A DNA stretch of 64,000 nt from IMG/VR virus record IMGVR_UViG_3300027816_000056; one strand, written 5' to 3'. This document shows, piece after piece, positions 11,694 through 40,735 of the stretch. The notes below the pieces were generated by a model. It was given only the letters and a program-made list of their open reading frames with translations, did not search any database and was not told the DNA's origin. Positions within the stretch are counted from its first letter, which is position 1. Each line of letters starts with the position of its first letter. A program made the translations under genes and the position numbers. Origin of the DNA: a virus.

Positions 11694-12664
11694 TTGTTAT
11701 ACACCTTTTGCCAAAATTCGATCATTTCATCCATCATTTTTTCAAATGTATATGTCGGAGTCCAACCTAATTCTGTTTTAATTTTTGTACAATCTCCTTT
11801 GAGATACGGTAACTCTTCTGGACGTAAAAACTTTTGATTCTGTATCACATAATCTCTATAATCTAATCTCAACTTACCAAACACATACTCACACATATCT
11901 CGTACCGATCTAGTTTCCTCAGTCGCAACAACCCAATCACCTGGTTTATCTTGTTGTAGAATGAGATGCATTGCTCTTACATAATCGTAAGAATGTCCCC
12001 AATCACGATAAGCATCCATATTACCTAATTCCAATTTATCTTGCAATCCTAAACTAATTAAAACTGCGGCTTTGACAACTTTATTTGTTACGAAATTAGA
12101 ACCACGTCTAGGTGACTCATGATTAAATAGAATACCATTAGATGCATGTAAGTTATATGCGTTTCTATAATTTCGTACAATATTATATGCAAATACTTTA
12201 CTACATCCATATGGCGACACTGGAGTCATTGGTGTTGTTTCTCGTTGAAATCCATCGGCGTCTACAGAACTGCCAAACATCTCAGATGATGATGCTTGAT
12301 AAAATTTTGCTATTGGACATGCATTTCTATAAGCTTCCAATATATTCAGAACCCCCAATCCATTTGTTTGAATTGTAAATTGAGGTATGTCAAAACTAAT
12401 ACGAACATGGCTTTGAGCTGCAAGATTATAAATTTCATCTGGTTGTATTTTTGCTAATAAATGTTCTAAGCTACTTTGATCTAATAAATCGCCGTAATAT
12501 GTATAAATTGTATCGTCTAGATGTGATATTCTAGATTCTTGATGTTCTGGAGTAGAATTTCTTCTTACAATTCCATGGACTTCATATCCAATTGAATGTA
12601 AATATTCTGCTAAATATGAACCATCTTGTCCGGCGATTCCTGTGATAAACGCTTTTTTTTTCAT
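11690..12664 (-). CDS. gmd: GDP-mannose 4,6-dehydratase
   Basis: ITGIAGQDGSYLAE, YNLAAQSHV, YQASSSEMFG, GILFNHESPRRG, RDWG. Confidence 0.97.
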   Translation of the reverse strand: MKKKAFITGIAGQDGSYLAEYLHSIGYEVHGIVRRNSTPEHQESRISHLDDTIYTYYGDLLDQSSLEHLLAKIQPDEIYNLAAQSHVRISFDIPQFTIQTNGLGVLNILEAYRNACPIAKFYQASSSEMFGSSVDADGFQRETTPMTPVSPYGCSKVFAYNIVRNYRNAYNLHASNGILFNHESPRRGSNFVTNKVVKAAVLISLGLQDKLELGNMDAYRDWGHSYDYVRAMHLILQQDKPGDWVVATEETRSVRDMCEYVFGKLRLDYRDYVIQNQKFLRPEELPYLKGDCTKIKTELGWTPTYTFEKMMDEMIEFWQKVYNK

Positions 12665-13248
12665 TTAAAAATTTCCATTTGTGTTAAATCGGGCCAATCA
12701 GTTGAAACCCATTGTTTTGGTTTTGTTTGTATTGCTGTATCTAATTTGTCTAAACCCAATTGAGCGGTTTCTGGTGTCATATAGTAATGATATCCGTATG
12801 TTTGAACATTTTGTACTCGCCATGGAATATTCGGCAGTCTACCATCATATGACATTTTTTTTAACTGTATAGCTGCAGCTTTGTTATCAGTTAATATCAT
12901 TCCACCGCGTCCTAAACTTAAATGTTTTTGATATTGAAATGATAAACTCATATATGTCCGTGGGATGTAACTATCTGCAGACCACAAAACTGCTGCATCA
13001 ATAACAGAATCTGTTAAATAATAGTAATCAACCCAATCTTCTGTTCGCCATTCCAAATCAATTAATAATTTATTTGCTAAAAATGGAATTGATAAATATG
13101 TATTTTTTGGAACACTTATACTATCTGCATTTGTATATCGCAGACATAATTCAACACCGTGAGTACAAGAATCAACTGCAATCGCATATGGAGCTCCAAA
13201 AAACTTAGCAATGCTATTTTCAAAATCCGTTACGGTATTAAAATTCAT
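12661..13248 (-). CDS. Shortened DegT/DnrJ/EryC1/StrS PLP-dependent sugar aminotransferase
   Basis: FE..IAKFFGAPYAIAVDSCT, IDAA, SFQYQKHLSLGRGGMILT with the Schiff-base Lys; only 195 aa. Confidence 0.8.
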   Translation of the reverse strand: MNFNTVTDFENSIAKFFGAPYAIAVDSCTHGVELCLRYTNADSISVPKNTYLSIPFLANKLLIDLEWRTEDWVDYYYLTDSVIDAAVLWSADSYIPRTYMSLSFQYQKHLSLGRGGMILTDNKAAAIQLKKMSYDGRLPNIPWRVQNVQTYGYHYYMTPETAQLGLDKLDTAIQTKPKQWVSTDWPDLTQMEIFK

Positions 13249-13787
13249 TTTGTTGCCTCCACATTCAAACTAATTAATAATCCATTTTCTTTATCCATAT
13301 GTGGATAATATGCTTGAGAATGATCATCATATTGTGCATGATCTGTCTTTTTCCAATTATAATGAATTATATTGTAAAATCCTAATGATTCTAATAATTC
13401 CTTTAAAGAGTTAAAATCATATACTGTTTTATGGTAAATGGTTGCATTGCCCATGGGCATTTGACCGAATAATGGTCCTAATATTTTATTTATATCATTC
13501 GTATCTTGATATACCCACATTAATTTTAAGAAATCTGGAACTGCTAATCTTAATGTTCCGCTGGGACGTAAAACGCGATACCATTCTTGCAATACCGTTT
13601 TTATTTCTGTTCTATCAAAATATTCTATAACATGTGATGCGTAAATAACATCAACAATTCCATCATTAAATGGTAATTTTGTTATATCATTAAATTGTAA
13701 ATGTGAATAATCTCCGCCGTCAATATGAATCCAATCTGAACCGAAGTCGCGCCATCCGCAGCCTAAATGTAATTTAATCGTTTGCAT
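13245..13787 (-). CDS. SAM-dependent methyltransferase (Methyltransf_11-like)
   Basis: LHLGCG, LPF..VDVIYASHVIEY, EWYRVLRPSG. Confidence 0.88.
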   Translation of the reverse strand: MQTIKLHLGCGWRDFGSDWIHIDGGDYSHLQFNDITKLPFNDGIVDVIYASHVIEYFDRTEIKTVLQEWYRVLRPSGTLRLAVPDFLKLMWVYQDTNDINKILGPLFGQMPMGNATIYHKTVYDFNSLKELLESLGFYNIIHYNWKKTDHAQYDDHSQAYYPHMDKENGLLISLNVEATK

Positions 13788-14355
13788 ATAATGTAATTAA
13801 ATTTAATTTTATATTTTCTTTTTCCCAAGCAACATCGGCATAAGCAAATCCCAATGATTGTAATTTATTTATTAGATCATTATGTTGATCACTCGTTATA
13901 TTAGTTATTTTACCTAAATGAAATTCTACAAATAAATCATTAATATATTCTAAACAATTGTTAGATAACATATGGTTTAATAATTCATATTCAGCACCTT
14001 CTATATCAATTTTTAAAATAATATAATCATCCTTATCAAAATTATCTGTAATAAATTTACATACATCTAAACACTCCGTTTCGATAAATCGATCTTGTTT
14101 AATATTGGTAATTTTAGATGAATTGATGGTACTAGCAAATGATTCACTACCTAAATAAAATTTTACAACGCCATCGCGAATCCAAGCAGCTTTTTTATAA
14201 AAATTAACACCATTAAAATTTTTAAATGATTTAAAATTACTTGGATCTGGTTCAAATGCATGAATCTCATATTCAGCCGAATCTGGTATTAAATCATAAA
14301 AAAATTTAACTGATTGTCCTTTGTTAAATCCTAAATCTATAAAAATTTTTTTCAT
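13774..14355 (-). CDS. FkbM-family methyltransferase
   Basis: FIDLGFNKG, AFEPDP, LKIDIEGAE, VEFH. Confidence 0.88.
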   Translation of the reverse strand: MKKIFIDLGFNKGQSVKFFYDLIPDSAEYEIHAFEPDPSNFKSFKNFNGVNFYKKAAWIRDGVVKFYLGSESFASTINSSKITNIKQDRFIETECLDVCKFITDNFDKDDYIILKIDIEGAEYELLNHMLSNNCLEYINDLFVEFHLGKITNITSDQHNDLINKLQSLGFAYADVAWEKENIKLNLITLYAND

Positions 14356-14762
14356 ATAAATGTTTTATCTAATTGTTGACCTTCATATGGTCCTGTTTTA
14401 TATTCATATACTAATGTATTATCTTCTAAAATTTCATACGTATGACCACCTTGCAATGTAAATGAAGCATCACCTGTATATAATATTGGAGTTGCAATAA
14501 TTTGATCATCGATATCATAAAAAATGCATTTTACACTTCCATGAATTACAATCCAACTTTCCTGAGCAATTATATTACGATTACGTTCTTTCCATATATG
14601 TTTATGTGGAGCAAATGTTTTACCCTTTTCCATATTGAGCAAAGAACATTGTATAAATTGATTGTCTGGAACTACTTCAGTTCTACCCGGACTTAAATCT
14701 TCTTTTCGTACTATTATATGTAATAATATATCTGAATCAATATTACTATAAATTTTTTCCAT
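14352..14762 (-). CDS. Cupin protein (WbuC/sugar isomerase-like)
   Basis: PHKH..QESW, GGHTY, EYKTGPY. Confidence 0.75.
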   Translation of the reverse strand: MEKIYSNIDSDILLHIIVRKEDLSPGRTEVVPDNQFIQCSLLNMEKGKTFAPHKHIWKERNRNIIAQESWIVIHGSVKCIFYDIDDQIIATPILYTGDASFTLQGGHTYEILEDNTLVYEYKTGPYEGQQLDKTFI

Positions 14763-15409
14763 TATAACGTTTCGTAATATGAATTTTGTTTTTCTTGTCG
14801 TTCGATTGTCTTTGGATGATATAAAGAATAATCTTCTTCCATTGGTAGCTGTGCATATTGCTTGAATCCTGTTAATACTTCATGTACTCGATTCTTCCAG
14901 GTAACTGTACCATCGTTACGATATATTCTCCACTGATAATCCGGCCAATTCACCCATCCTTCGGAATTTACATTCCAATTCCATTTCATTGCGTGTTCCT
15001 CAGTTAATCCATCAACTGTATTAACGCGTGGCACTAAATACACATCAACATCTGGATTGCTTTGTAATATTGTTGGCAATGATTCTAATATCGGAGTGCA
15101 TGGAATTTCGTCAGCGTCAATTTGAAAAATATAATCACCGGTGCATTGTTGTGTTAAATGATTTTTAAATGCAGCAAAATCATTGTTTAGTGGATAAAAT
15201 ATAACTCGTACGTTGCCTTGCTCATTATGTTTCATAATATATCCAAAGACCTCACGTTTATCTTGTGTTTGCGTATTCAATTCATCTAGATTCAAATCCA
15301 TTTGAACTACAATCTCATCTTGCGGTCTTTTATGTTCTAAAAGAAATGTAATGAGTCTTTGTATTTCAACGAACTCATTGCATACCGTCAGTGCGTAACT
15401 TATTTTCAT
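14762..15409 (-). CDS. Glycosyltransferase family 2
   Basis: ISYALTVCNE, DYIFQIDADE, PDYQWRIY, VHE. Confidence 0.88.
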   Translation of the reverse strand: MKISYALTVCNEFVEIQRLITFLLEHKRPQDEIVVQMDLNLDELNTQTQDKREVFGYIMKHNEQGNVRVIFYPLNNDFAAFKNHLTQQCTGDYIFQIDADEIPCTPILESLPTILQSNPDVDVYLVPRVNTVDGLTEEHAMKWNWNVNSEGWVNWPDYQWRIYRNDGTVTWKNRVHEVLTGFKQYAQLPMEEDYSLYHPKTIERQEKQNSYYETL

Positions 15410-16689
15410 GCTTCAATCTTTTTTAATTTTGGCAATGTAATCTTTGGAGCTTCAGTTTCGACCCGTTTCAGTTTAGGAAGTTGAAGTTGAATTTGTTGTG
15501 GAACTGATTGCAATGATGAATCAACATGTTCTAATACTTGTTTATATGTTTCTGCAATTGCAGTTTTTGTAAATGTGCTATTAACAAAATATCGTTGACG
15601 TTTTGCTAAATCCATCCATTTTTTATAATTTTTGCGAACTTCTTGCATCATCTTTCCAGCATATTTATAATCTGGAGTAAACCATTTAGCTTCTTTAATT
15701 AAAAATGGATTCTGTGCAGATGCATGAATTGGAGTCAATCCTCCTGGCAATGCACAAATAAAATCTTTCTTTAAAAAGTCGGCTTGTCCAGAATAATGTG
15801 GAGCTATAATTGGTTTACCTGTAGTTGAGAATTCTAATAATGGTCTACCAAATCCTTCTGCTTTAGTAAATGATATCATGGCTTTAACTTTAGGATGATT
15901 GTACATGGCATTCATTTCAAAATCTGCTAATTCTCCATGCACAAGATACACATTGGGAAGTTTAGCCGATCCAAAGTTTTCTCGAATCTGCAAAATACGT
16001 GATTCAATTTCCATTCTATCCATGATGCTATACGTAGCACCACTTGTTTTTAATATGAGAGCTGGTTGATCTTTAGTGTTTTTAAATGTATCAAAGAAGC
16101 AGTGTACTAATCCAGAAAGATTCTTTCGGTCTTCACCTAATGATCCTTGCAACCAATGTCCTACCGATAAGAATGCCCAAGATTCTTTAATTTCATCTAG
16201 CAGCGGAAACGGAATATCTGCTTTGTTGTTATATACAACTTCATTGAAATATTCTGGTACAACTTCTATTCGTGTTGTTAGTGGTAAATTTTGTTGTTTT
16301 GCGGTATTTTCAAATACTTCTTTAGTAAAGTTACTAGGAACTATTACCAATTGCATTTTATTTAAATTTTCAATCCATTCTTTAGGACATACATCGCCTT
16401 CTGTTCCTGCAGTCACTCCTATATTATATTTGCCAACCGGTTGCAATTCATTAGGAACTGATATTTGCACCCAAACATCTGGTTGTTCTGTTAATGGTAA
16501 CGGAATAATTCTTCGCATCCATTCCGGAGATAACGGATATGTCATTGGAGTTCCGCCCCACGGCAATGAAACTAATTTAACATCCCATGAATCTCCTCGT
16601 TGTTCTATAATATTGCTAATTACTTCTCGTGCATGATGCCCGTAACCGCTTTGTGTTGCTACGGGACTTGCTATAACTATTTTTCTCAT
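15406..16689 (-). CDS. Glycosyltransferase family 4 (GT-B)
   Basis: SGYG, VPSNF, RKN, EGFGRPLLE..GKPII. Confidence 0.88.
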   Translation of the reverse strand: MRKIVIASPVATQSGYGHHAREVISNIIEQRGDSWDVKLVSLPWGGTPMTYPLSPEWMRRIIPLPLTEQPDVWVQISVPNELQPVGKYNIGVTAGTEGDVCPKEWIENLNKMQLVIVPSNFTKEVFENTAKQQNLPLTTRIEVVPEYFNEVVYNNKADIPFPLLDEIKESWAFLSVGHWLQGSLGEDRKNLSGLVHCFFDTFKNTKDQPALILKTSGATYSIMDRMEIESRILQIRENFGSAKLPNVYLVHGELADFEMNAMYNHPKVKAMISFTKAEGFGRPLLEFSTTGKPIIAPHYSGQADFLKKDFICALPGGLTPIHASAQNPFLIKEAKWFTPDYKYAGKMMQEVRKNYKKWMDLAKRQRYFVNSTFTKTAIAETYKQVLEHVDSSLQSVPQQIQLQLPKLKRVETEAPKITLPKLKKIEA

Positions 16690-18179
16690 TGTGCTACTAT
16701 TCCTGTTCGTTCATAAACTCGTTCTTCTACTCGATGCAATGTGTATGATGGTCTTGATTCTTTTTTAATTGAAAATAAATAGTTAAACATTTCAATCATT
16801 TTGTTACCCATCGATTCTGCAGTCAATCCGTATTGCATGCACCATACTCTTCCGCAAATTCCAGATGACTCTCTCACTTCAGGATCCATATCATACCAAT
16901 AACGAATTGCATCGGCTACATCTTCAAAACTTACTCGATCATCAAAGATATATGGTGTTGCTGGTGATCCTTGTAATGATCTATTGGTTGGAAATACTGG
17001 TTTTGCCCAACTTCCATGTTTCTTAAACTTACCGGTATGATTTGTTGCAAATTCACCATTGAAACGAATCCATTCTCCATTTTCATCTTGAAAACCACAT
17101 TGATCTTGCAATCCACCAGTTACATTGTTAATTATTGGAGTACCTGATAGCATCGCTTCGGTTGAACTTAATCCCCATCCTTCGTTGCTACCAATATTAA
17201 CTACAACATCAGCTACATTGTACATTGCATTAAGATCTTGTGAAGATAATTTTTGTTCTGAAAACAATATTTTACAATTTGGTGCTAATGCCTTTGCTAC
17301 TGCACGAAGATCCGTTCCATTTTCATCAATTGCTTGAGTATGCATTAATAATGCAACACGACTCTGTTGTTCTGCTGGTAACTGATCTACAAAATGTTTG
17401 AATGCAATAACTAAATCACCTGGTTGCTTCCTTCTAATATTTCGATTGTTCCAAAATACTACAAAATCTACGCCGTTACGTGTTTTAATGCGTTCATACA
17501 TTTGCTTGTATGTTTCATCGGTTTTTGGTAACGGCTTAAACATGTTGTGATTCAATCCGTGCGGCACAAATCCGGTAACTACTTGATTCCATTTAAGATC
17601 TGCAGGAGCTGAATCTCCATCATCATAATCTACAACCCCAAATCCGTTCTGTTTAAGCACTTCTCTGTGAATATTATCAGATTGCTTACTAATGCCCATA
17701 ATCATATCACAACTGCCGTAAAAAGGGGCGTTCCACATTGGATACGGCAAATCATCCCAAATAGAATAATACGTAATTGGAACACCAAACGTTGTTTTAA
17801 TTTCATGTTCTAGTTGATACAACCAAGTCCAGTAACGAGGATCTGTAAAGTGAAGAATTGCATCGGGACGTTCTTGATTCAAAATTGCAAACAAGATGTT
17901 TCTGTCTCCATATCCATTCCATGGAATCAATTTAACTGACGCATCTTGTATGCCAGTTTCTCGAGCAATTTCTTGAGACAAATCAAATGCTTTGCCGGCA
18001 TCTGGATGATTGATTGCTGCACCTAATTGCACCCAATCAAATTCCTTAACGGTGTTTAAAATAATTTCTTTGCTAACTGTTCCAATTCCAGATGGAAGAC
18101 GGAAATCATCTGCTAATAATAGAATTTTCTTTTTTGCAGGACGGTTAGGATCAATTTTTCTTAATTTTGGTAACTCCAT
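16686..18179 (-). CDS. Glycosyltransferase family 4 (GT-B)
   Basis: SGIG, VPHG, NRNIRRKQ, EGWGLSSTEAMLSGTPII. Confidence 0.9.
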   Translation of the reverse strand: MELPKLRKIDPNRPAKKKILLLADDFRLPSGIGTVSKEIILNTVKEFDWVQLGAAINHPDAGKAFDLSQEIARETGIQDASVKLIPWNGYGDRNILFAILNQERPDAILHFTDPRYWTWLYQLEHEIKTTFGVPITYYSIWDDLPYPMWNAPFYGSCDMIMGISKQSDNIHREVLKQNGFGVVDYDDGDSAPADLKWNQVVTGFVPHGLNHNMFKPLPKTDETYKQMYERIKTRNGVDFVVFWNNRNIRRKQPGDLVIAFKHFVDQLPAEQQSRVALLMHTQAIDENGTDLRAVAKALAPNCKILFSEQKLSSQDLNAMYNVADVVVNIGSNEGWGLSSTEAMLSGTPIINNVTGGLQDQCGFQDENGEWIRFNGEFATNHTGKFKKHGSWAKPVFPTNRSLQGSPATPYIFDDRVSFEDVADAIRYWYDMDPEVRESSGICGRVWCMQYGLTAESMGNKMIEMFNYLFSIKKESRPSYTLHRVEERVYERTGIVAQ

Positions 18180-19840: not shown

Positions 19841-20038
19841 ATAATGTTGCCGTTGTTCTTGCAGATAAATATCAATTAAATCTTTTGTTTTGTTAAGATC
19901 TTGTTCAAATGTACCTTTATGTCGGCATCTTACAATGCGTTTAATGATATCAAATTCATAGCTATTAAGTGACCACTCTTCTGCAAATTTATACAAGCTA
20001 TCTTTACCTCTGTAGTGTGATTGTGTGTTTACGCTCAT
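19823..20038 (-). CDS. DUF3310-like small phage protein
   Basis: SHY, IIK.IVRC.HKG..QDLNK pattern. Confidence 0.6.
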   Translation of the reverse strand: MSVNTQSHYRGKDSLYKFAEEWSLNSYEFDIIKRIVRCRHKGTFEQDLNKTKDLIDIYLQEQRQHYLDLTK

Positions 20039-20487
20039 TTCTTAACTCCTTTGATCATTGTTTTTATTTCACGTTCAGCATAACCGTATAATGACAGAAG
20101 ACGGGTGCATTGTTCTTGATTTAATAATTCGGCGTAGTCGATTGCTTCGGATTTGCTTACTTGATAATGTTCTGCAATCTGATCAATCAATTTGTCTGAA
20201 TATTTATCGTCTTTTTTACCTTTAACATACTTTGCAAAACCTTTGCTTGTTGGTAGTATTTCATGATAAAGGCGATATGTTTCTCTAGGTCGTAACAATC
20301 CTATTGTATATGTTTGTAACTCATTAACAAGTTCTATCAGATCCTGCCGCATTGATAGCCATCGATTCACAATAAATGGAGAAAACTTTGCCTGATCTGT
20401 TTCAGACCATTTACGCCATTCTTTCTTTTTGTGTGTGACTCCATCAATAAAATCAAAAATTGTTGCACCCTTTTTTTCTTCTGCCAT
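20035..20487 (-). CDS. Clamp-loader small subunit (T4 gp62-like)
   Basis: IFDFI..K, FSPFIVNRWLS, IAEHYQVSKSEA; near clamp loader and clamp. Confidence 0.8.
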   Translation of the reverse strand: MAEEKKGATIFDFIDGVTHKKKEWRKWSETDQAKFSPFIVNRWLSMRQDLIELVNELQTYTIGLLRPRETYRLYHEILPTSKGFAKYVKGKKDDKYSDKLIDQIAEHYQVSKSEAIDYAELLNQEQCTRLLSLYGYAEREIKTMIKGVKK

Positions 20488-20702: not shown

Positions 20703-20923
20703 TATTTTTTCAATTTAATTGGTTGAAACTCTTCCGGAATAGCACCACAATCATCGCATCTAAATACCGGTACTGGTACCATTGTATCTTTGTCTCCGCC
20801 TGTTAGAAACTTTGACACTTTGTTAATTGCCATTACCTGACGAAAATACAATCCGTCACATTCTTTGCATTGTATCGGTTGCATATCATTAGGACCGATA
20901 TTTACATTTAATTTATTACTCAT
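20702..20923 (-). CDS. Zinc-ribbon protein
   Basis: CKEC..CDDC. Confidence 0.7.
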   Translation of the reverse strand: MSNKLNVNIGPNDMQPIQCKECDGLYFRQVMAINKVSKFLTGGDKDTMVPVPVFRCDDCGAIPEEFQPIKLKK

Positions 20924-21846
20924 ATTTCTCCTAAAATATTTACAAACATTGCCATTGCATTGATTTCTTTGTCTACTACACTAGCATCTTTAAATTGCGA
21001 CTCTGCAATAATCAATATTACCGGTGCAATATGGCCGTGAGCAAATTCATCTAAGTTATCATATAGAAATGTATACAATGGCGTAAAATCTCGCACTTTG
21101 CTATCCGCAATAATTTGACGAATTTTAGTAAATGCTGCCTTTTTATCTTTGCTATTACGCAGAACATCCAAAATTTCCGTCATGTAATTGGCTTGTATGC
21201 TACTTGTTTTGTCTAATTGCAATACTCCGTTAACTACGGATGCTTGTGCTGCATTAATTGCACGACGAATATCTGGATAAGATGCATTAATGATTGCTGC
21301 TACGTCTTTGATGTCATATCGTATTTCATTTTCTTCAAGTACTTGCACTAATCGCTTTGCTACATCCGTTTTATTGGGTGGAGTTATTGCAAATGTCTGA
21401 CAACGAGATTGAATTGGGTCAATAATCTTTTCAACATAATTACATGTTAAAATGAATCGTGTTGTTTTGCTATAAGTCTCCATTAAATTGCGAAGTGCGG
21501 CTTGAGCATTAGGTGTCAAGTAATCTGCTTCATCTAAAATAATGATTTTCCAACGACGAAATCCAACTGTAGATGCATATCTTTTAATTTTATCTCTAAC
21601 AGCATCCACCGAGTTTTCATCCGATGCATTTATATACATAACATCGGCGTCCACACTAGAGGCAATGATTTTTGCCAACGTGGTCTTCCCAGTTCCAGCT
21701 GTGCCATAAAATAACAAGTGAGGAACGTCGCCATTAGCAATAAATATGCCAACTTTTTCAATGATATGTTCATTTCCTATATATCCTTCTAATGTATCTG
21801 GGCGAAACGATTCTACCCAGAGTGTATTTTCTGTGTTTCCGTACAT
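20920..21846 (-). CDS. Clamp-loader AAA+ subunit (T4 gp44/RFC small subunit-like)
   Basis: LWVESFRP, GTAGTGKTT, INASDE, DEAD, SRC. Confidence 0.95.
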   Translation of the reverse strand: MYGNTENTLWVESFRPDTLEGYIGNEHIIEKVGIFIANGDVPHLLFYGTAGTGKTTLAKIIASSVDADVMYINASDENSVDAVRDKIKRYASTVGFRRWKIIILDEADYLTPNAQAALRNLMETYSKTTRFILTCNYVEKIIDPIQSRCQTFAITPPNKTDVAKRLVQVLEENEIRYDIKDVAAIINASYPDIRRAINAAQASVVNGVLQLDKTSSIQANYMTEILDVLRNSKDKKAAFTKIRQIIADSKVRDFTPLYTFLYDNLDEFAHGHIAPVILIIAESQFKDASVVDKEINAMAMFVNILGEI

Positions 21847-22279: not shown

Positions 22280-22990
22280 TTAATTCTGTAACATTACTAA
22301 CCAATATGTTGAATCAAAATCATTTCCAACAAAATCTATACGAGCTAATCCATCTGGTGATACATGCAACTGACCAGCATCTCCTCGATTTGCTACAAGT
22401 ACTTCTTTCAATTTATCTGCAGAGAAACAAACTGGATCCATATCTGCACCTGGAGTATTGCCTACTTCAAATGTGATGTTGTCTGCATTTACGGTACTAT
22501 AATTAATAATAAAACGAATTACACCACCTTTAACTTGAACTGCAAAGTTTTTAGCATCAGGCAAAGCATTTTTTGCTTTGATAAATTTAGTAATAAACTC
22601 ATCATTAACTGGAATTTGAATTTGATAATCAGGCTCTGCATTGATTGCAGGTACTGCTGGAATGACAGTGGTATCAGCTAACATAAAGGTTGCTTCAGTT
22701 TTTCCTTCGCTGATTTTCATTGCATAGTTTTTACCTGCAGAATCTTTAACATCAATTTCAATATTTTCACCTAGTGCTGATAACATTTTAATTAAGGCGC
22801 CTGTATGATTGATTCCTAATTCGCCTTTCATGAAAGGAGTCGTTTTCCATTGAATTTTACCTACAACGGTTTGATCAATATCAATTAATTCACATCCGAT
22901 TCCTTCGGCATTTTCTTTTAGTTTAACTGCCTCGCAATTACCAGCAAGATAATAACGATTAATTAATGATTGTAATTTGCTTTTTTCCAT
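22280..22990 (-). CDS. Sliding clamp (T4 gp45-like)
   Basis: 236-aa two-lobed alpha/beta pattern, next to the clamp loader. Confidence 0.75.
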   Translation of the reverse strand: MEKSKLQSLINRYYLAGNCEAVKLKENAEGIGCELIDIDQTVVGKIQWKTTPFMKGELGINHTGALIKMLSALGENIEIDVKDSAGKNYAMKISEGKTEATFMLADTTVIPAVPAINAEPDYQIQIPVNDEFITKFIKAKNALPDAKNFAVQVKGGVIRFIINYSTVNADNITFEVGNTPGADMDPVCFSADKLKEVLVANRGDAGQLHVSPDGLARIDFVGNDFDSTYWLVMLQN

Positions 22991-23001
22991 TTTTATCCTG
23001 A

Positions 23002-24264
23002 TTAAAATTTAAAGAATTTATTAAAGTTTTCTGCATCGGTAGTTGAAATTGAATCACCTCCGAATTTTTTATATGTTTTAATATACTTTTCGTATACTTG
23101 TGGTGCTGCATCTGGATCTGCAAACATTTCATGCAATGATAAAATCACATCATATAAATCTTTAGGAACTACTGTTTCTAACAATTCAACGTGACTATCA
23201 ACTAATTGATTTATTTCTTTTGCAGCATTCACATACAAATGGGTATTATGAACAACCATTCTAGGCATAGCTTCTTGTGAATATCTATCTAATCCAGCAT
23301 CCGTCTTACCGCCGAGATATTCATATGTAAAATCAGCACAAGCTGGACATCCTAATTGACAAGGTACATGTTGTGTCAAATCAATTCCAGTTACATCACC
23401 CGTTTTGCCTTGTTTGATATGTGACTTACGTCGATACTCAGCATTCTTTGGAAAATACAATTCAGAGAATGTTTGTGTCTTGAAATTTGTTGAATGAAGA
23501 TACGTTCCAAATACTGGATATTGTCCTGGTGATGATGAATCCGTTGTTACTGTAATTCTTCCTCCGTAATGTTTATTCATTAATTTTTGCATTGTTGCTA
23601 AAATAAAGAAATCGGAAATTTTACTAATTCCTAACAAGTGAAGATATTCATTACGAGTTTTTTCAAATTCTCCTTCTTTAAGCATTAATGATAATGCAAA
23701 CATGAAATCAACTAATTTTTGTGGACCACCAATCGCCCATCCTTGAAAATCAAAATGCTTGAATTTATGATACCACCATGTATATTCCTCAGCATTCGAT
23801 CCTTGCAACATATTCAAAAACTTAGTCTTACCGCTTTGATGTTTTTCAAACCAAGCAAAGTTATCATAACTAATATCTGCACATGTTGCAAATTGATTTC
23901 TATATTTAGTTTTAGGTGGTATATCTAAATTTGCTGCAACATCGCTGTTTGCTTCTAACCAATGAAAAATCTTTTCACGAAGTTCATTACTATACGGCAA
24001 AGCACCAGTTGCAATCTGATATCCTCCAGAATCTCCAAATACTAATACATCTTTTTCTAATCCTAGTTGATCTCGAAAATCCATTTTTTTGTAATGATGT
24101 CCTGCCGTAATCAAAAAGTATGGATGTCTCCAATCTTCTGGATAACGAGAGTCAAAAAACTTTACAGGGTCACCATTTGAAAATTTCATATCTTTCTTAA
24201 ATGCAGAAACCATAGATCCTGCAGATAATGATGGAAAGTATATGAATCTTTTAGCTTCGCTCAT
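23002..24264 (-). CDS. dpdA: Guanine transglycosylase, DpdA/TGT family (probable DNA 7-deazaguanine insertase)
   Basis: DSGGYQ, LDIPP, LQG, WAIGG, HLLG, DSSS, C-x3-C-x2-C..HN zinc site; folE/queD/queE nearby. Confidence 0.8.
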   Translation of the reverse strand: MSEAKRFIYFPSLSAGSMVSAFKKDMKFSNGDPVKFFDSRYPEDWRHPYFLITAGHHYKKMDFRDQLGLEKDVLVFGDSGGYQIATGALPYSNELREKIFHWLEANSDVAANLDIPPKTKYRNQFATCADISYDNFAWFEKHQSGKTKFLNMLQGSNAEEYTWWYHKFKHFDFQGWAIGGPQKLVDFMFALSLMLKEGEFEKTRNEYLHLLGISKISDFFILATMQKLMNKHYGGRITVTTDSSSPGQYPVFGTYLHSTNFKTQTFSELYFPKNAEYRRKSHIKQGKTGDVTGIDLTQHVPCQLGCPACADFTYEYLGGKTDAGLDRYSQEAMPRMVVHNTHLYVNAAKEINQLVDSHVELLETVVPKDLYDVILSLHEMFADPDAAPQVYEKYIKTYKKFGGDSISTTDAENFNKFFKF

Positions 24265-25291
24265 TGTATTCCTTTAGTTTATTAATTAATTTTGTTGCTG
24301 AAAAAAAGTTTTTATGTAATGCTGTAACCAGTTGATTAATATTAGTTGTTATATCAGCATTTTCATATTCTAATATTGCTTGAACCACATCATCTATACT
24401 ATTCGCACGTTTAAACATCGGCGAATACATTTCAGTGTATGATAATCTATCTGGCACAATCGGACATGCTCCTGCACAAGCTGATTCATACATTGATATA
24501 CCTAATGTTTCTTGATCTGCAAATGATACTGCAAACTTAGCTCGTCGAAGCAATTCATGATATTCTGGTTTAGTTAAATTCATTTCCATTGCTACACAGA
24601 ATTGATAATGTGCTAATTCTGGACGAGCTGCTAATTCTTGAAATAAGTCTAATCGTTTCTCAGGAGCTATACGGTGCGGAAACACTATGATGTTTTCTTT
24701 TTCTGCCCAAGCTTTTGGTTGAATTATATTTTTGGTATATTCCATTGGCCAGCCCGTACGATGAAATGTTAAATTGAATGATATATCATATGTTTTACTC
24801 ATTAAATCAAAGTGAGCTTGTGTTGCTAACCAATTGAAATCAAATGCAGATATAAATGATTGTTCTGCGTGTCGTATCCACGATTTTCCTCCTACGAGAC
24901 GACCTAAAAAATCATTTGGATCATATGACCCCGCGTGCCATAGTCCGTGCGTTACAACGGGAATATTTAGGAGTTCGCTCATGTATTTTACATTGATAAT
25001 ACCCGGATGCCATGCATCTGTAAAAATAATATGATCTCCTGGCTGAATATGTCCTCGGGTAAACATGTAACTTAAAGAATGAACTTGCTTTGCTTTATAC
25101 ATGTTAGTACCACCAAAATTTAAGAATGCACCTGGAGTGGTTGCTTCTGGAATATTCAAATCTCCCTCTACAACAATTACTTCAAATCCAGCTTCTTCTA
25201 ATAATTTTGGTACATGAGTCTTCCATTCGCAGGTATAACGAGTTGGTACTGATTCTATGTCAACTAAAAATATTCTCATCTTATCTTTCAA
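24251..25291 (-). CDS. GT-B (GT4-like) glycosyltransferase in the deazaguanine operon
   Basis: HAGSYD, VFPHRIAPEKR, QETLGISMYE..GACPIVPDRLSY.E. Confidence 0.8.
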   Translation of the reverse strand: MKDKMRIFLVDIESVPTRYTCEWKTHVPKLLEEAGFEVIVVEGDLNIPEATTPGAFLNFGGTNMYKAKQVHSLSYMFTRGHIQPGDHIIFTDAWHPGIINVKYMSELLNIPVVTHGLWHAGSYDPNDFLGRLVGGKSWIRHAEQSFISAFDFNWLATQAHFDLMSKTYDISFNLTFHRTGWPMEYTKNIIQPKAWAEKENIIVFPHRIAPEKRLDLFQELAARPELAHYQFCVAMEMNLTKPEYHELLRRAKFAVSFADQETLGISMYESACAGACPIVPDRLSYTEMYSPMFKRANSIDDVVQAILEYENADITTNINQLVTALHKNFFSATKLINKLKEYNERS

Positions 25292-25637
25292 TTATCGCTC
25301 CATTTTCCCAATCTTCCCAAACTTCTACTTTGTATAATTCTGGAAATTGATCTAATAAAAATTCTCCAATAGCTTCGCATGACATTGCACCAAATTCTAG
25401 TACATTATATGCATCTTTTTCGAAATACATATGAAGATTTCGTTTTATCTCTCGATTTAATAAAATAAATTCTTTGTCTCGATCCGTATGCGTTACATGT
25501 GCATAACATCGAAATCCAAACATGTGTCGATGTCTATCCGATAAGAATGCTACTTCCGGGAACACATCTTTAGCAGCGGGCCAACAATGAAACCCTTCAA
25601 TACTAAATGTTACTACTACGCTGTACTTCATCTGCAA
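25281..25637 (-). CDS. dpdL: QueD-like T-fold protein, probable CDG decarboxylase (DpdL-like)
   Basis: EGFHCW, LSDRHRHMF (LxxxHRHxF, which I recall as the DpdL signature), SCE, VWEDWENG; a canonical queD exists separately. Confidence 0.7.
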   Translation of the reverse strand: MQMKYSVVVTFSIEGFHCWPAAKDVFPEVAFLSDRHRHMFGFRCYAHVTHTDRDKEFILLNREIKRNLHMYFEKDAYNVLEFGAMSCEAIGEFLLDQFPELYKVEVWEDWENGAIIER

Positions 25638-26019
25638 TTAATTGTTTATATTTAGTTGTAGACCAACCATGTGATCTATCAATGTAATGAATAAGAGTAC
25701 CTAAATCTTTACCGGTAAAATCTTTTCCAATGTAATCATCTCCTAGGAAACGAATATCCGGATCAATACCTTTAATAAATTCATAAAGTATTTTTTCCGT
25801 AGAATACGTTATAACTTCATCAATCATTTCTAATGAAAGCAACATTTCTTTACGTTCGGCTACTGATAAGATAGGTTTCATTTTTTCTGGACGTTCGATA
25901 CTAGGATCTTCATGTAACAATACAATCAACCTAGTACAATGTTTTTTACATTCATTAAACATCTTAATATAACCTGGATGTATTACATCAAAGTTACCAG
26001 CAATTACTCCTATTTTCAT
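25603..26019 (-). CDS. Cytidylyltransferase (TagD glycerol-3-phosphate CTase-like)
   Basis: AGNFDVIHPGY (HxGH variant), KPI..ER, GDDY, RSHGWSTT. Confidence 0.85.
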   Translation of the reverse strand: MKIGVIAGNFDVIHPGYIKMFNECKKHCTRLIVLLHEDPSIERPEKMKPILSVAERKEMLLSLEMIDEVITYSTEKILYEFIKGIDPDIRFLGDDYIGKDFTGKDLGTLIHYIDRSHGWSTTKYKQLIADEVQRSSNI

Positions 26020-26441
26020 TGTCTATCGAATTTATAATCATCTGGAGTTACTTGTTGCATATTATGCACTGTGGTACAATACAATGAATAATCTGCATAC
26101 ACAACTTTAATACTATCTGTTTTCTTTAGCAATCCAGCATCTTTACAATCCAACATTAATAAGATGTGAGCTCGAATTCTAATCATTGGTGGTATCTTTT
26201 CTAACATACCAGGAGTAACTTCTAATGTTACAAAACTAGTATCAGAAATCATTCTGAATACCATATCCCATCGCTCTTGTTCAATTAACTGCTGTGTAGC
26301 TCCGGAACAAAAATAAACATGTGCTATTTTATTTGCTACAATTTTATCTAATGCCTTTACATCAGCAATAAATAAAGTTTCAATATCGGTAAAGCGACCT
26401 TCTACTTCTTTACCATACCAATGAGTTCTATAACCAATCAT
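26016..26441 (-). CDS. Hypothetical protein, first gene of the deazaguanine/clamp operon
   Basis: 141 aa; WYGKEVEG..TLFI, HVYF; ATGA overlap with the CTase gene. Confidence 0.75.
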   Translation of the reverse strand: MIGYRTHWYGKEVEGRFTDIETLFIADVKALDKIVANKIAHVYFCSGATQQLIEQERWDMVFRMISDTSFVTLEVTPGMLEKIPPMIRIRAHILLMLDCKDAGLLKKTDSIKVVYADYSLYCTTVHNMQQVTPDDYKFDRQ

Positions 26442-26446
26442 ACCAT

Positions 26447-26475
26447 ATTATAATAAAATAATTGCTATTTTCCAA
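26447..26475 (-). promoter_or_regulatory. Sigma70-like promoter TTGGAA-N17-TATAAT (leaderless)
   Basis: Perfect -10 box 5 nt from the ATG at 26441; -35 box lies in the last codons of polB. Confidence 0.7.
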
Positions 26476-28972
26476 ATGAAAAGAATCGATTTGCATTATT
26501 ATTCTCCGGTAATGCGCCCCATCCCATTGCAGAATAAAAATCATCAAACTTATTGCTTAACTCACTTGAAAACATTTTGTTATGATCAATATACTGTTCT
26601 GCAAAGGCTACAATCTCTGGTGGGTCTTGATAACCTCGTAATGCTATAGTTTCAAAGCCATATGGATTGTTAAGCAAGTAACCCCATTTAATTTTTTCTC
26701 CATCTGATATAGGTAACACATCTGTATTTAATTGTGTTAACATATCATTGAAATTGATTGCAGCTTTAACGTGTGCAGTGGATCCTTTGATATATCCAGA
26801 AAATGGTTTTCGGCCTTTGATATATTTTGACAATTCTTTAACACTTGAATTCTTCATAATATTCAATACTTCTGATTTTTTAATATTACTTTTGAAATCA
26901 TGTATCAATGTAGAAGTTGTTTGCTTGTCTTTGCCTTTAAGAATAAACCACAATGTTTCTTTCATGATCTTTTTAAAGTCAGCCGGAAAACTTGATCTTA
27001 CAACATCTAATCCTTTTATATCCAATTTATCTGTAGGTTTTCCTTCTTTGAAAATAACCCATTGTGCATATCGTTTCTTTGCAATCCATAAACCAGATTT
27101 TGCAATGTATTCCTGCTTAATTTGGAATCTATGTTTTTCGGTATTATGAAATACTTTTGCATATTGATTATACATTGTATTAACAGTGCCTTGAATCTCA
27201 GATGCAATTGCATTTGTTTGTTCAATCATGAATTGTTCATCTTCAACATCGCATCCTGGAAATCTATGTTTGATTAAAGGTTCGCTGCTACAAAAGGTTG
27301 AATCTGTATCCGTGTAAAATGCAAACTCTGCTTTATCTCCAGATGCATTAACAAAATGATCCGTGCCTAATTCTCGTTGATATTGATTATTAATAACACG
27401 ACCAGAAAATTTAATTATGCTTTGCCCTACTGCTGTAATAGCACCTGCATTATCTAGATCATGAAAACGAAATGTTTTTAATCCTAATACTCCATAAAAT
27501 GAATTGAGCAATACTTTTTGCGTTAACTGCAATGCATCATAGAATTTATACTCCTCAGTACCTACTGCAAATGTATCTCGTTTGTCTTTGAATATTACAC
27601 GTTCATCAAACCATTTTTCAAGAATCGTTGGAAGAAATCCGCGTTGATCATTTCTATAGACTGTACCGTTACTTGCAATACTGTAATTATTTTCAACTAA
27701 CCAAGATCTAATATCTGGAATTGTTTTTCCATTCATCGTGACCTGAGTTGCTTCGTCTCGCATCATACATTCCTGATTCCAATTTGATACAACTCCAATT
27801 TTTGTTTCTGGAGATATATTCAATGTCATGATGATACTAGGATACAATGATGTTAAGTCCAAGTCATAGATCCATTTATATAATCCAGGTACCGGTGCTT
27901 TTACATATGCTCCTGCTAATGCATCAGCTATTGTTTCTTCTTCAATGAATCGGAACTGTTTGTTAGGCGCAACTAATCCGTTTCGCTTTAAATCTACAAT
28001 TGCAGCACCATCTAGATATTTAGATGCATAATATACATCTTCATATGGAACGTGACCTTTGTGACAAATTGAACGTGCTAAATTCAACATTTGCAACTTG
28101 TCGTCTAATTCATAAACCAGATCAACGTCAGTCATATTGTAATAAGCAAACTTGTGAATATCTTGTGTAAATAGTGTATCTAAATCACCTTCGTATTCAA
28201 CTTTGCCTCGACCTAATTCAAATTGTGCTACTGTATCTAATCGATAATTAGGAAGTTCTGTATATGTAAAGTTTTTATATAATTTTAAATAATCTAAACT
28301 AGATACACCTAAAATTTTCCACTTACCGGATTTGCTTTGTTCAACTACTCCTGCGGGAGATAATTTTTTAATGGATTGTGCACCTAATACTTTTTTGCAA
28401 CGACCTATCAAATACGGAATATCATATCCATCAGTATTCCAGCCTGTAATTACTGTAGGTTGTATTTCTGCGAATATATTAATAAATCTAGTTAATAAGT
28501 CTCTTTCATCTCGAAATATCTCTAAAGTATAGCCGTCACCTTGTATTTCACGGTCTTTTATGCGGCCTAATTCATCTAAAATTAATACTCGACGATCTTT
28601 GCCGACTTTATCATAGTATGCAATTGAAGTAATTGATGTACGTACATCATCAATTGTACTATAACCATTTTCATCTTTTGCTGTTTCAATGTCAAAAAAG
28701 AAATCTCTATGTCCTTTTGAAGGCTCATCTGATTCATAATACAAATCAATTAGAGTTCTAACTTCTTCATTTAAATCAGATTCATATGATTTAGGATTAT
28801 CTCTGTGATTACCAGCAACACGATCTAATCTAGTGCCGTCTAATGATTGATATTGTCCTTGTGTATTTGGTAAATATCCATATGGTTGAAATGGAAACTT
28901 TTGATGTCCTAATTCATCATCCCAAACGTGCATAATGCCGTTTTTCTTGTCGTAACCTATTGCTTGATACAT
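26465..28972 (-). CDS. polB: Family B DNA polymerase (T4 gp43-like)
   Basis: FFDIET (ExoI), GWNTDGYDIPY, DLTSLYPSII, KVLLNSFYG, YTDTDS, KKRY, KGLDVVRS. Confidence 0.97.
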   Translation of the reverse strand: MYQAIGYDKKNGIMHVWDDELGHQKFPFQPYGYLPNTQGQYQSLDGTRLDRVAGNHRDNPKSYESDLNEEVRTLIDLYYESDEPSKGHRDFFFDIETAKDENGYSTIDDVRTSITSIAYYDKVGKDRRVLILDELGRIKDREIQGDGYTLEIFRDERDLLTRFINIFAEIQPTVITGWNTDGYDIPYLIGRCKKVLGAQSIKKLSPAGVVEQSKSGKWKILGVSSLDYLKLYKNFTYTELPNYRLDTVAQFELGRGKVEYEGDLDTLFTQDIHKFAYYNMTDVDLVYELDDKLQMLNLARSICHKGHVPYEDVYYASKYLDGAAIVDLKRNGLVAPNKQFRFIEEETIADALAGAYVKAPVPGLYKWIYDLDLTSLYPSIIMTLNISPETKIGVVSNWNQECMMRDEATQVTMNGKTIPDIRSWLVENNYSIASNGTVYRNDQRGFLPTILEKWFDERVIFKDKRDTFAVGTEEYKFYDALQLTQKVLLNSFYGVLGLKTFRFHDLDNAGAITAVGQSIIKFSGRVINNQYQRELGTDHFVNASGDKAEFAFYTDTDSTFCSSEPLIKHRFPGCDVEDEQFMIEQTNAIASEIQGTVNTMYNQYAKVFHNTEKHRFQIKQEYIAKSGLWIAKKRYAQWVIFKEGKPTDKLDIKGLDVVRSSFPADFKKIMKETLWFILKGKDKQTTSTLIHDFKSNIKKSEVLNIMKNSSVKELSKYIKGRKPFSGYIKGSTAHVKAAINFNDMLTQLNTDVLPISDGEKIKWGYLLNNPYGFETIALRGYQDPPEIVAFAEQYIDHNKMFSSELSNKFDDFYSAMGWGALPENNNANRFFSFGK

Positions 28973-31197: not shown

Positions 31198-31986
31198 TTA
31201 CACCCCGCGCTGCGTATTGAAAGCTATTATGTGATCTCTTCCTGTCATGTTATATCCTCGTTCGGCACACATTTCAAATACTATCGGATACATTTTGATT
31301 AATTCTTCTCGAGTATCGCCGGCGGGCATAATATACGTCTTTTCTTTAGGAATTTCTAAAAATTCGCGTGCTTCTTCAATTTCTTTAAGATTCTCTTCAG
31401 TGCCATCCCATACTGGTTTAAAATGATAATCAGAATGAGTGGTTATCATTGCATTCATTGCTGAATAATTCAGCCTAAACTTGTTATGTTGCGCAACCAT
31501 CTTTTCATCCGTAATCGTGCCTTGCGGCGTAGCAACACCCACCCTGGGAACGCTATTGCTAAACTTAGGGCTAAGAGAGATAAGCCCAATAGGATAATCA
31601 GTCTCAATAAAATGCGAGCCTTCAGTTTCAATAGTAATGAGAATATCTCTTTCATGTGCAAAATGTGTTAGTTCGTTAACTAATGCAGGATGCATTGTGG
31701 GAGATCCACCCGTTAACATCATTTCTTTGATATGTGGATTTTTATCATAAATATCAATGATATCATTAAATGTAAATGTGCCTTTTTCTGGGTGAATGCT
31801 AGTGTACCAAGAGTCACACCAACCTCCTTCGCCAAACCAACAACGATGAGTGCAGCCTGTAGTTCTAACTGCAATTGTAGGTCTGCCAAATCGAGATCCT
31901 TCTGATTGTACACAACGATATAATTCTACTATTGGAAGTATTTTCGTGTAATCTGTAATTCTTTTAGAATGGGAGGTCATCGTCAT
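31198..31986 (-). CDS. queE: 7-carboxy-7-deazaguanine synthase (radical SAM)
   Basis: ELY..VQSEG..G.P...VRTTGC, atypically spaced Cys motif CTHRC..WCDS, LTGG.P, TIETEG, SLSPK. Confidence 0.92.
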   Translation of the reverse strand: MTMTSHSKRITDYTKILPIVELYRCVQSEGSRFGRPTIAVRTTGCTHRCWFGEGGWCDSWYTSIHPEKGTFTFNDIIDIYDKNPHIKEMMLTGGSPTMHPALVNELTHFAHERDILITIETEGSHFIETDYPIGLISLSPKFSNSVPRVGVATPQGTITDEKMVAQHNKFRLNYSAMNAMITTHSDYHFKPVWDGTEENLKEIEEAREFLEIPKEKTYIMPAGDTREELIKMYPIVFEMCAERGYNMTGRDHIIAFNTQRGV

Positions 31987-32329
31987 CTTCTATTTTATTT
32001 GTTGATATATTCAAGTTGTTAATTACGTTTTGAAATAAAGACTCAAGCAATTGCAATCGTTCCTGCAATTTAATTAATTCAGAACGCCTTACAATTGGAG
32101 TTAAATCCATTTCCGACATATTAGCAAAATAATCATCTAAAAATGATATAGGATACAATTGCACTTGAGTATATTCCGGTTTCTGAGCTTCTTTCGGTAA
32201 CATTCTCCATTTAATCTCAACGCCTCGTTTAATAGCTTCTGCTGTTACTTCTCGACCAATATTGGTACCTCCAGATCCTTTACCTAAATATTCAAAAAGC
32301 GATAGATATGTCTCATTATTATTCTTCAT
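31964..32329 (-). CDS. Hypothetical protein with C-terminal coiled coil and acidic DDDDLPF tail
   Basis: Between queD and queE; likely start MKNNNET. Confidence 0.65.
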   Translation of the reverse strand: MKNNNETYLSLFEYLGKGSGGTNIGREVTAEAIKRGVEIKWRMLPKEAQKPEYTQVQLYPISFLDDYFANMSEMDLTPIVRRSELIKLQERLQLLESLFQNVINNLNISTNKIEDDDDLPF

Positions 32330-32795
32330 ATATACTTGAATTATTATCGTTTTCAAAACATTCTACTTTGATACATCGACATCTGCCAGCATCTGTATTT
32401 GCTAAAACTTCATTGAATTTATCATATACTAGTTTAGCACACGATTCAGCACCCATCTTTTCTAGAAAATGTACTTTTGCTAATCCAGATACTTGAAGCA
32501 TTTCAAACATATCTCTATAAGGATCATCTGCTTGAATAAGTGTAGTATGATCCCACATATGATCCATCCAATCTTTAAGACCATTGCCTTTTGGTGGTGT
32601 CTTGAAACCTCCATAATCAACAATCCAATTCATATCATCAAGTTGATTCTCAATATCTGGTTCGTTAGATGCAAACCATACTTTAAATTTAAGTGCATAT
32701 CCATGTAGCAGTTGACAATGAGAATGTTGAGCTTTCCATTGACGTATTGCTACTGAATAGTTTTCAAATAGTTTTGTTGAAATGTAACGTGCCAT
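32319..32795 (-). CDS. queD: 6-carboxy-5,6,7,8-tetrahydropterin synthase
   Basis: HCQLLHGY, WIVDYG, WDHT, GAE, VECFE. Confidence 0.9.
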   Translation of the reverse strand: MARYISTKLFENYSVAIRQWKAQHSHCQLLHGYALKFKVWFASNEPDIENQLDDMNWIVDYGGFKTPPKGNGLKDWMDHMWDHTTLIQADDPYRDMFEMLQVSGLAKVHFLEKMGAESCAKLVYDKFNEVLANTDAGRCRCIKVECFENDNNSSIYEE

Positions 32796-33496
32796 TAATT
32801 ATAACCTTTTACAAATTGATAAAATTCTGATCTTGCATTACCATCTTCTAAGAATGCTCCGGATAGCTTTGCTGTCTTCATTGAAGCTCCGCCATGCTTA
32901 ACACCTCTGCATTGCACACAATTATGCGTTGCTTCAATCATGATTGCAACACCTTTATTGTTTTCAATTAATTCATCTATTGCGTGATGTATTGCTACTG
33001 TCAATTGTTCTTGAATTGCACCTCGTCTGCCAAAGTGTTCTACTACACGATTCAATTTACTCAAACCAATAACATTGCTATTCTCACCTGGAATATATGC
33101 AACATGTACATTACCCATAATTGTCTGATGATGATGACTACACATTGAAGTTAATGGAATACCTCCTTCAAATACAATACCATCATATCCGTCACTAGGA
33201 AATGCTGTAATGTCTGACATTGGATTATATCGGCCGGCCCATAAATCATTTACATATGCCTTTGCTACTCTACGTGGAGTATCAGCTGAATTTGGATCCG
33301 TTTCCCATGTTACTCCTAATGCTGTTAAAAATTGTCCGTAATGATATGCAGCTTTATCAATAATTTCTTGTTTTTCTTCTGCAGTTAGTCTAGCATCAGG
33401 ACCTTCTAATGTTTGCTTAACTGCTAATTGCATAGAAACACCGTTAGCAAAACCAGGATGCACTAACTCTAAATTTGTTCTTTGTTTTGTTGTCAT
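32795..33496 (-). CDS. folE: GTP cyclohydrolase I
   Basis: DTPRRVAK, SMCSHH, IGLSKLNR, IQEQLT, HNCVQCRGV. Confidence 0.96.
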   Translation of the reverse strand: MTTKQRTNLELVHPGFANGVSMQLAVKQTLEGPDARLTAEEKQEIIDKAAYHYGQFLTALGVTWETDPNSADTPRRVAKAYVNDLWAGRYNPMSDITAFPSDGYDGIVFEGGIPLTSMCSHHHQTIMGNVHVAYIPGENSNVIGLSKLNRVVEHFGRRGAIQEQLTVAIHHAIDELIENNKGVAIMIEATHNCVQCRGVKHGGASMKTAKLSGAFLEDGNARSEFYQFVKGYN

Positions 33497-40707: not shown

Positions 40708-40735
40708 AATAGTATTTTTAATTATCTAGCTTGAT

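Follow-up and report, generated by a model that had tools for sequence, protein, structure and literature searches.

A DpdA-like transglycosylase of an uncultured T4-like virus ends like the viral DNA polymerase: a probable sliding-clamp-binding tail

Why would an enzyme that exchanges bases end in the same short peptide as the DNA polymerase of its virus? This question is raised by the IMG/VR virus record IMGVR_UViG_3300027816_000056, of which a stretch of 64,000 nucleotides (further referred to as the window) was analysed. The window belongs to an uncultured T4-like myovirus, and its minus strand carries all genes, including all window features located below. It encodes a protein of 420 amino acids (aa; 23002-24264) that is best read as a predicted DNA 7-deazaguanine transglycosylase (DpdA-like), as well as a T4 gp43-type family B DNA polymerase (PolB; 835 aa; 26465-28972). 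A first-pass annotation had claimed that both proteins share a C-terminal tail, NxN[KR]FFxF, by which the DpdA-like enzyme would ride the sliding clamp. The follow-up analysis indicates that the DpdA tail is probably a T4-type sliding-clamp-binding motif (SCBM) of the form F-x-x-[FY]-F-x-F on a flexible linker, a reading for which the comparative data argue well and the modelling weakly.

The tail shared by the DpdA-like enzyme and PolB

The DpdA-like protein ends in GGDSISTTDAENFNKFFKF and PolB in ENNNANRFFSFGK, as read from positions 23002-23067 (translated as KFGGDSISTTDAENFNKFFKF, followed by the stop codon) and 26465-26512 (translated as LPENNNANRFFSFGK, again followed by the stop codon), respectively. 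Both tails read as the first-pass annotation had them and at the sites that it had named, apart from coordinates that included the stop codons and so differed from the residue count by one codon, a trivial point. In the DpdA-like protein, the proposed motif FNKFFKF covers residues 414-420 (23005-23025) and is preceded by a linker (residues 401-413, the GGDSISTTDAEN region; 23026-23064), the length and sequence of which differ among distant relatives. Indeed, the AlphaFold2 (AF2) model of this protein shows a predicted local distance difference test (pLDDT) score of 56-58 over the final 20 residues, with residues 405-410 below 50 and a short helix at residues 411-417 only. Because pLDDT is low over these last 20 residues, the tail is, according to the model, a linear motif outside the enzyme fold. 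The PolB tail, NRFFSFGK (26468-26491), is the positional equivalent of the clamp-binding peptide of T4 and RB69 gp43.

The exact pattern NxN[KR]FFxF is confined to this window, the PolB of close relatives ending in VAKFFSFGK, so that this part of the first-pass claim has to be widened. The conserved core consists of [FY]F-x-[FL] and a hydrophobic residue upstream. Among close relatives of the DpdA-like protein, 115 out of 120 end in [FY]F-x-[FL]; aromatic residues are fixed at positions -7, -4, -3, and -1 (phenylalanine at -7, -3, and -1), and positions -2, -5, -8, and -9 vary. On the model and the alignment, the tail is neither buried nor poorly conserved. At larger distances (30-48% identity), [FLM]F was found within the last six residues in 81 of 123 full-length representatives, one per 50% cluster; in most of the others, a short extension comes after the motif. 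This corresponds to a C-terminal enrichment of approximately 17-fold over internal positions drawn at random from these proteins (66% versus 3.9%). Within the window, FF-x-aromatic occurs in the final 14 residues of four of the 260 open reading frames (ORFs) of at least 40 aa, namely PolB, the DpdA-like protein, and two short ORFs on the non-coding strand; no other ORF of the coding strand carries it.

The DpdA tail also follows the PolB tail from virus to virus, as was found when the DpdA, PolB, and clamp ORFs were read in each of 80 related viral loci. For example, DpdA ends in KKINNLFKF and PolB in KKINSLFKF in locus L056; the corresponding pairs are KMDALFD and KMDGLFW in L071, IETFFDF and IESFFEF in L053, FSSLFE and FNKLFEF in L080, and VNEFFQL and VSDFFSF in L057. 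The cultured Acidovorax phage ACP17, whose DpdA (gp123) is 25% identical to that of the window over 169 residues, displays the same pairing (TLDELFE in gp123 and SLDDLFE in PolB, gp116). In a permutation test over 17 lineages, in which kinship was ignored, the summed tail similarity within genomes amounted to 390, versus 289.8 +/- 21.3 after shuffling (p ~3e-5). Furthermore, among the 1237 ORFs of ACP17 (94% of the genome), the DpdA tail was the one most like that of PolB, and the same was true for the DpdA-like tail among the 795 ORFs of a complete close relative of the window (G001; 159,586 bp). A chance origin of the tail was rejected on the basis of its C-terminal enrichment and this genome-wide ranking. 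A recent DNA copy between dpdA and polB was rejected too, as identical tail residues often use different codons; the codons were identical for three of six such residues in ACP17, three of five in L071, and five of eight in L056. Since synonymous codons differ, the likeness of the tails appears to be kept at the protein level. Such co-variation is the pattern expected of two peptides that compete for one site on the clamp and would favour DNA rather than tRNA as substrate, as the first-pass annotation had argued.

The enzyme, the clamp, and the proposed docking

The DpdA-like protein is placed in the tRNA-guanine transglycosylase (TGT) superfamily because of its AF2 model, Foldseek matches to TGTs, and conserved DSGGxQ, Asp, and Cys/His residues. 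The model, based on an alignment of 93 relatives, has a pLDDT of 92.5 and matches archaeosine TGT (1iq8) in the PDB with an E value of 1e-9 and a probability of 1.00, i.e. it has the TGT fold; bacterial and human TGTs were matched as well, and over 200 TGT chains had E <= 0.001. Residues D78-S79-G80-G81-x-Q83, D114, H209, and D242 are invariant in the 93 relatives, H339 is conserved in at least 90% of them, and LPCxxxCPxC stands in their consensus, so that the Cys/His cluster of the zinc site is kept. The catalytic Asp pair presumably corresponds to D102 and D280 of the Zymomonas mobilis enzyme. Profile searches were less telling. The protein itself had no Pfam match at E <= 0.01, no PHROG match, and no match to a DpdA model of PADLOC; the curated PF01702 and NCBIfam scores were not reached, TIGR00432 giving a faint 14.3 bits (cut-off 350). 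PF01702 is precomputed on relatives at 72-79% identity.

The precursor pathway for 7-deazaguanine is encoded along with the DpdA-like gene. It comprises FolE (GTP cyclohydrolase I; 32795-33496; PF01227, E 2.5e-44), QueD (PTPS; 32319-32795; PF01242, E 2e-11), and a radical SAM protein that is a probable QueE (31198-31986; PF04055, E 2.4e-6, slightly under the curated cut-off) and adjoins QueD and FolE, as in phages phiST and ACP17. In addition, a T-fold protein of 118 aa (25281-25637) is DpdL-like, with the sequence LSDRHRHMF and 42% identity to the DpdL of phiST, CGPG_00067; LxxxHRHxF is the DpdL signature given by Hutinet et al., DpdL being a predicted decarboxylase of 7-carboxy-7-deazaguanine (CDG; PMC10516641). 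No QueC turned up in the scanned ORFs. The presence of FolE, QueD, and QueE without a visible QueC underlies the DpdA-like reading, and the base inserted is probably 7-deazaguanine or a CDG derivative. Hence, the transglycosylase identity put forward in the first-pass annotation is sustained by a TGT fold in a FolE/QueD/QueE/DpdL context. The same combination of a TGT-superfamily enzyme with FolE, QueD, QueE, and DpdL characterizes the phage families DpdA1-4 (PMC10516641), and ACP17, the dpdA of which was tested in that study, has the same architecture and tail. Membership of DpdA3, the type of phiST and CP220, was rejected: phiST DpdA3 (CGPG_00065) has 259 aa versus 420 aa and aligns with the DpdA-like profile at an hhalign probability of 1.6%, and no profile match was found in CP220.

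The DpdA-like gene lies immediately before the clamp gene, as had been noted, its stop codon being located 11 nucleotides ahead of the clamp ORF (236 aa; 22280-22990). In related loci, the clamp gene starts at most 120 nucleotides from the DpdA stop codon in 50 of 55 cases. The 236-aa protein is, on its model, a true clamp of the gp45/PCNA fold: phrog_223 is matched at E 1.9e-7, the AF2 model has a pLDDT of 93.7, and the top Foldseek match is T4 gp45 (3u61_F; TM-score 0.74/0.78), with further matches to RB69 gp45 (1b77) and PCNAs. PolB, which contains PF00136 and PF03104 and matches phrog_262 (E 3e-178), is homologous to RB69 gp43, the structures of which are matched at E 8.9e-69. It is established that T4-type polymerases bind the clamp through their C-terminal peptide (Shamoo and Steitz 1999, structure 1b77; PMC7892883).

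Clamp-binding motifs borne on linkers are known from the T4 polymerase, ligase, gp33, and gp55 (PMC7892883). Like these SCBMs of T4 and RB69, the DpdA tail is a short hydrophobic and aromatic peptide on a flexible linker (PMC7892883; 1b77, 6drt), located at the extreme C-terminus as in gp43, gp33, and gp55. Also as in T4 and RB69, a homotrimeric gp45-fold clamp is encoded beside its loader, and several predicted client proteins have one motif in common. The DpdA-like protein thus combines a C-terminal hydrophobic motif on a linker, a motif that follows the cognate polymerase, and a co-encoded gp45-type clamp with loader, as a clamp client should. It differs from the T4 and RB69 clients in its TGT fold, its [FY]F-x-F flavour, and the predicted nature of its binding. 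The kind of motif is already known; new would be a TGT-fold base-exchange enzyme as a class of client.

The nearest precedent for a clamp-binding DNA-modifying enzyme is the T4 alpha-glucosyltransferase (alpha-GT), which co-purifies with gp45 (Sommer et al. 2004; confirmed in PMC13216743). It likewise is a phage DNA-modifying enzyme on the clamp, thought to act concomitantly with replication (PMC13216743), but it has an unrelated fold and transfers glucose to 5-hydroxymethylcytosine instead of exchanging a base. Literature searches yielded no paper that links DpdA to a sliding clamp or PCNA, and the word clamp has zero occurrences in PMC10516641.

Eukaryotic-type clients offer a second comparison. 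The PCNA-interacting peptide (PIP) box has the form Q-x-x-[ILM]-x-x-[FY]-[FY], and PCNA clients include DNMT1, UNG2, and FEN1. The DpdA tail is PIP-like in its [FY]F pair, in the hydrophobic residue three positions before this pair (F-N-K-F-F), and in its occurrence on a DNA-modifying enzyme that may be coupled to a clamp, as in the DNA-modifying and repair enzymes among PIP-box clients. Nevertheless, it is no canonical PIP box, as position 1 is not Gln (Ala, Val, or Ile in close relatives), position 4 is Phe, the aromatic pair is followed by an additional x-F, and the clamp is of the gp45 type.

When the clamp was co-folded with DpdA residues 381-420, the score was 0.60, versus 0.00 for the best of three controls. 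This is a weak result, with no interface reported, and may reflect likeness to solved gp45 or PCNA peptide complexes. Modelling thus lends weak support to the docking put forward in the first-pass annotation. Of 80 solved complexes, 58 reached the mark applied to co-folds, as did two of 110 mismatched pairs; just seven of the 80 scored 0.60 or less, and so did both mismatched pairs that passed. Runs agreed in at least 43% of contacts, with a partner pLDDT of at least 47, and own alignments were used, so that these counts are rough.

Taken as a mechanism, the co-encoded loader would place clamps on newly replicated phage DNA, and a clamp protomer would receive the DpdA tail at its hydrophobic patch. 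Docked in this way, the enzyme would be concentrated on, and slide along, the nascent duplex, where it would swap guanine for a 7-deazaguanine base supplied by FolE, QueD, QueE, and DpdL. We infer that the enzyme physically binds the clamp, acts on DNA, and does so at or behind the fork; any gain in processivity or modification level is inferred likewise.

Counter-evidence and alternative explanations

Several observations weigh against clamp docking of this enzyme. The permutation test ignores shared ancestry, and a generic aromatic pair is common to all tails; in L036, L062, and L067, the tails match no better within their own genome than across genomes. The co-fold is a weak pass that could stem from likeness to known peptide complexes of the PIP or gp45 kind. 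The jumbo-phage forms of DpdA (502-518 aa; L074-L079) are without the motif, although their PolB has a tail of the LFDFE type. The late sigma factor of ACP17 (gp105; gp55-like) has no end of the LDDLFE type, although an SCBM is expected from T4 gp55; a homologue of gp105 was looked for in four related virus records and not found. Searches with single sequences or one profile showed that phiST DpdA3 lacks such a tail (it ends in LRELLKK), that CP220 PolB ends in TLEEW with no CP220 ORF sharing this tail, and that the DpdA-like profile finds no homologue in CP220. Finally, doubt has been cast on how much clamp binding matters for the function of T4 alpha-GT (PMC13216743).

The findings on phiST and CP220 bear on the wider claim of the first-pass annotation, according to which the tail offers a mechanism for very high substitution levels. 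The DpdA3 enzymes of these phages are the documented enzymes of complete replacement (PMC10516641). An extension to the documented full-replacement phages was rejected, the phiST enzyme being unrelated by hhalign and tail-less and CP220 having, in these searches, neither a homologue nor a shared tail. Since both phages do without it, complete replacement does not in general depend on a clamp tether, and the claim is weakened in its general form.

A role of clamp binding other than in processivity has to be considered as well. The tail may bind the clamp for regulation, by competing with PolB or late-transcription factors, or for mere localisation to replication factories, leaving processivity and modification level unaffected. 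The full replacement in phiST and CP220 without such a tail (PMC10516641) speaks for this option, as does T4 alpha-GT, for which clamp binding was confirmed and the share of modification was reported to be set by the expression level (PMC13216743). This option is nevertheless unlikely, as the tail is kept over 25-48% identity and tracks that of PolB, which argues for a strong selective benefit, and a second enzyme of DNA-modification type, of the LicD family, carries the tail too. Co-variation by itself points to a shared partner and not to its identity, so PolB and DpdA might instead dock on another hub of the replisome, such as the gp32-type single-stranded DNA-binding protein, the helicase, or the clamp loader, the genes of which all occur in the window. 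Such a hub is rather improbable, given that polymerases of the T4/RB69 gp43 type are established to bind the clamp by their C-terminal peptide (1b77; PMC7892883), that the DpdA gene directly precedes that of the clamp in 50 of 55 loci, and that the co-fold score was 0.00 instead of 0.60 when an unrelated protein replaced the clamp.

Least probable by far is that the enzyme acts on tRNA and owes its tail to composition or to recombination between neighbouring genes. Its fold and motifs are indeed those of tRNA-guanine transglycosylases, and an AT-rich genome (GC 0.29-0.37 in the region) enriches codons for Phe, Asn, and Lys. However, the model shows a single TGT barrel with helices, in which PUA-type tRNA-binding extensions were not seen, and the gene co-occurs with DpdL, FolE, QueD, and QueE and is itself part of the replisome operon. 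A mere by-product of composition or recombination is further contradicted by the roughly 17-fold enrichment at the C-terminus, the matching tails of the GC-richer ACP17, and the differing synonymous codons.

Genomic surroundings, other carriers of the tail, and implications

The nearest relative of the window's PolB is encoded by Microcystis phage Mel-JY01 (44% identity); T4-like cyanophages come next. A comparison at DNA level with deposited phages gave no match to the window, and metagenomic relatives number in the hundreds. From PolB onwards, the gene order is orf141, a cytidylyltransferase-like protein, the 118-aa T-fold protein, a GT-B glycosyltransferase (GT), and the DpdA-like gene, followed by the clamp, a dUTPase, and the large and small clamp-loader subunits. 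The large subunit is gp44/RFC-like (20920-21846; phrog_168, E 5e-83; AAA and DNA_pol3_delta2 domains), and the small one gp62-like (20035-20487; PF16790, E 1.5e-8; phrog_225, E 1.4e-20). Upstream genes encode gp32, UvsX/RecA, FEN/RNase H, a DnaB-type helicase, ribonucleotide reductase, FolE, QueD, and the radical SAM protein. A 440-aa protein (42727-44049) matches PHROGs of family A polymerases (phrog_17, E 5.5e-14), beside the gp43-type PolB in the same genome.

The GT-B type glycosyltransferase (24251-25291; PF00534, E 2.8e-6) is a conserved partner of DpdA, its homologues adjoining DpdA and DpdL in L053, L056, L074-L080, and ACP17 (gp124). DpdA, GT-B, DpdL, and the orf141-like protein travel together across very distant phages (window 24251-26441; L082 9297-12375, corresponding to ACP17 gp122-gp125; L053, L056, and L074-L080). 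Conservation in the jumbo-phage contigs is much stronger for the GT (E 1e-103 to 1e-115) than for DpdA (E ~1e-30). In the window, this set is joined by a TagD/RfaE-like cytidylyltransferase. The GT-B partner and the cytidylyltransferase suggest a DNA modification beyond plain 2'-deoxy-7-deazaguanine (dDG).

The tail may have further carriers. In L056, a LicD-family transferase ends in KINNFFKF, copying the tail of PolB and DpdA. Between PolB and DpdA, this locus (2855-10002) encodes a leucine-rich repeat protein, a methyltransferase, an NTP-transferase/aminotransferase (NDP-transferase/aminotransferase) fusion, a GFO/IDH/MocA oxidoreductase, an ADH-like protein, and the LicD-family transferase. 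Similarly, a protein of G001 resembling endonuclease VII and Holliday junction resolvases (phrog_945, E 1e-40; L091 4979-5461, corresponding to G001 104979-105461) ends in PKRFFS, with AKFFSFGK in PolB of the same genome, and may be another clamp client. The tails of both proteins are in keeping with a client motif that DNA-acting enzymes share more generally. FolE was rejected as a third client; its end, EFYxFVKGY, scored high in many loci, but we take it to be the C-terminal helix that is conserved in GTP cyclohydrolase I and not a tail.

Two other similar ends were left as unexplained coincidences. A baseplate-hub protein of the window (51038-51793) ends in QLFWF, and ACP17 gp129 (L082 14793-15554; annotated as a gp26-like baseplate hub chaperone) ends in CPKCGHKETLHLEGLDDFFV, i.e. 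GLDDFFV, the third-best match to the PolB tail of ACP17.

Elsewhere in the window, two adjacent small acidic proteins of 166 and 106 aa (40207-41056) have an N-terminal leader of approximately 21 residues in common (MMKK..LAENM.RF.TKN[LI]NE) and diverge thereafter; this leader is reminiscent of T4 capsid-targeting sequences, and the 166-aa protein ends in IYDFLF. Three tandem paralogous ORFs of 326-340 aa (55331-58364), all starting with MFFGNS.SDFGF and ending in GRGGNGGDGLV.I..W, probably encode tail-fibre or baseplate-associated proteins. Upstream of the replication module, positions 378-18179 hold a long unbroken run of approximately 20 minus-strand ORFs.

If the DpdA tail is a clamp-binding motif, it would link post-replicative base exchange to the replisome, as PCNA links DNMT1 or UNG2, and docking on the clamp provides a concrete hypothesis for how DpdA finds and modifies many guanines in duplex phage DNA. 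More tentatively, the clamp might be a cofactor without which neither this DpdA family nor other hypermodification enzymes, such as the LicD-type transferase with its like tail, can work. Base exchange and later decoration would then proceed as an assembly line on clamp-loaded nascent DNA; this broader possibility is doubtful at present. It touches on the report that dpdA and dpdL of ACP17 and phiST gave no dDG in Escherichia coli, for which missing factors were suggested (PMC10516641). A need for the phage clamp and its loader, which in ACP17 are gp108 and gp109/gp111, is a candidate for these factors. If true, an obligatory role of the clamp would explain why dpdA and dpdL of ACP17 gave no product in E. 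coli, and such pathways would become reconstitutable once clamp and loader are added. A C-terminal tail like that of a phage's own polymerase may moreover serve as a signature for replication-coupled DNA-modifying enzymes in phages, as the LicD-type transferase was found in this way.

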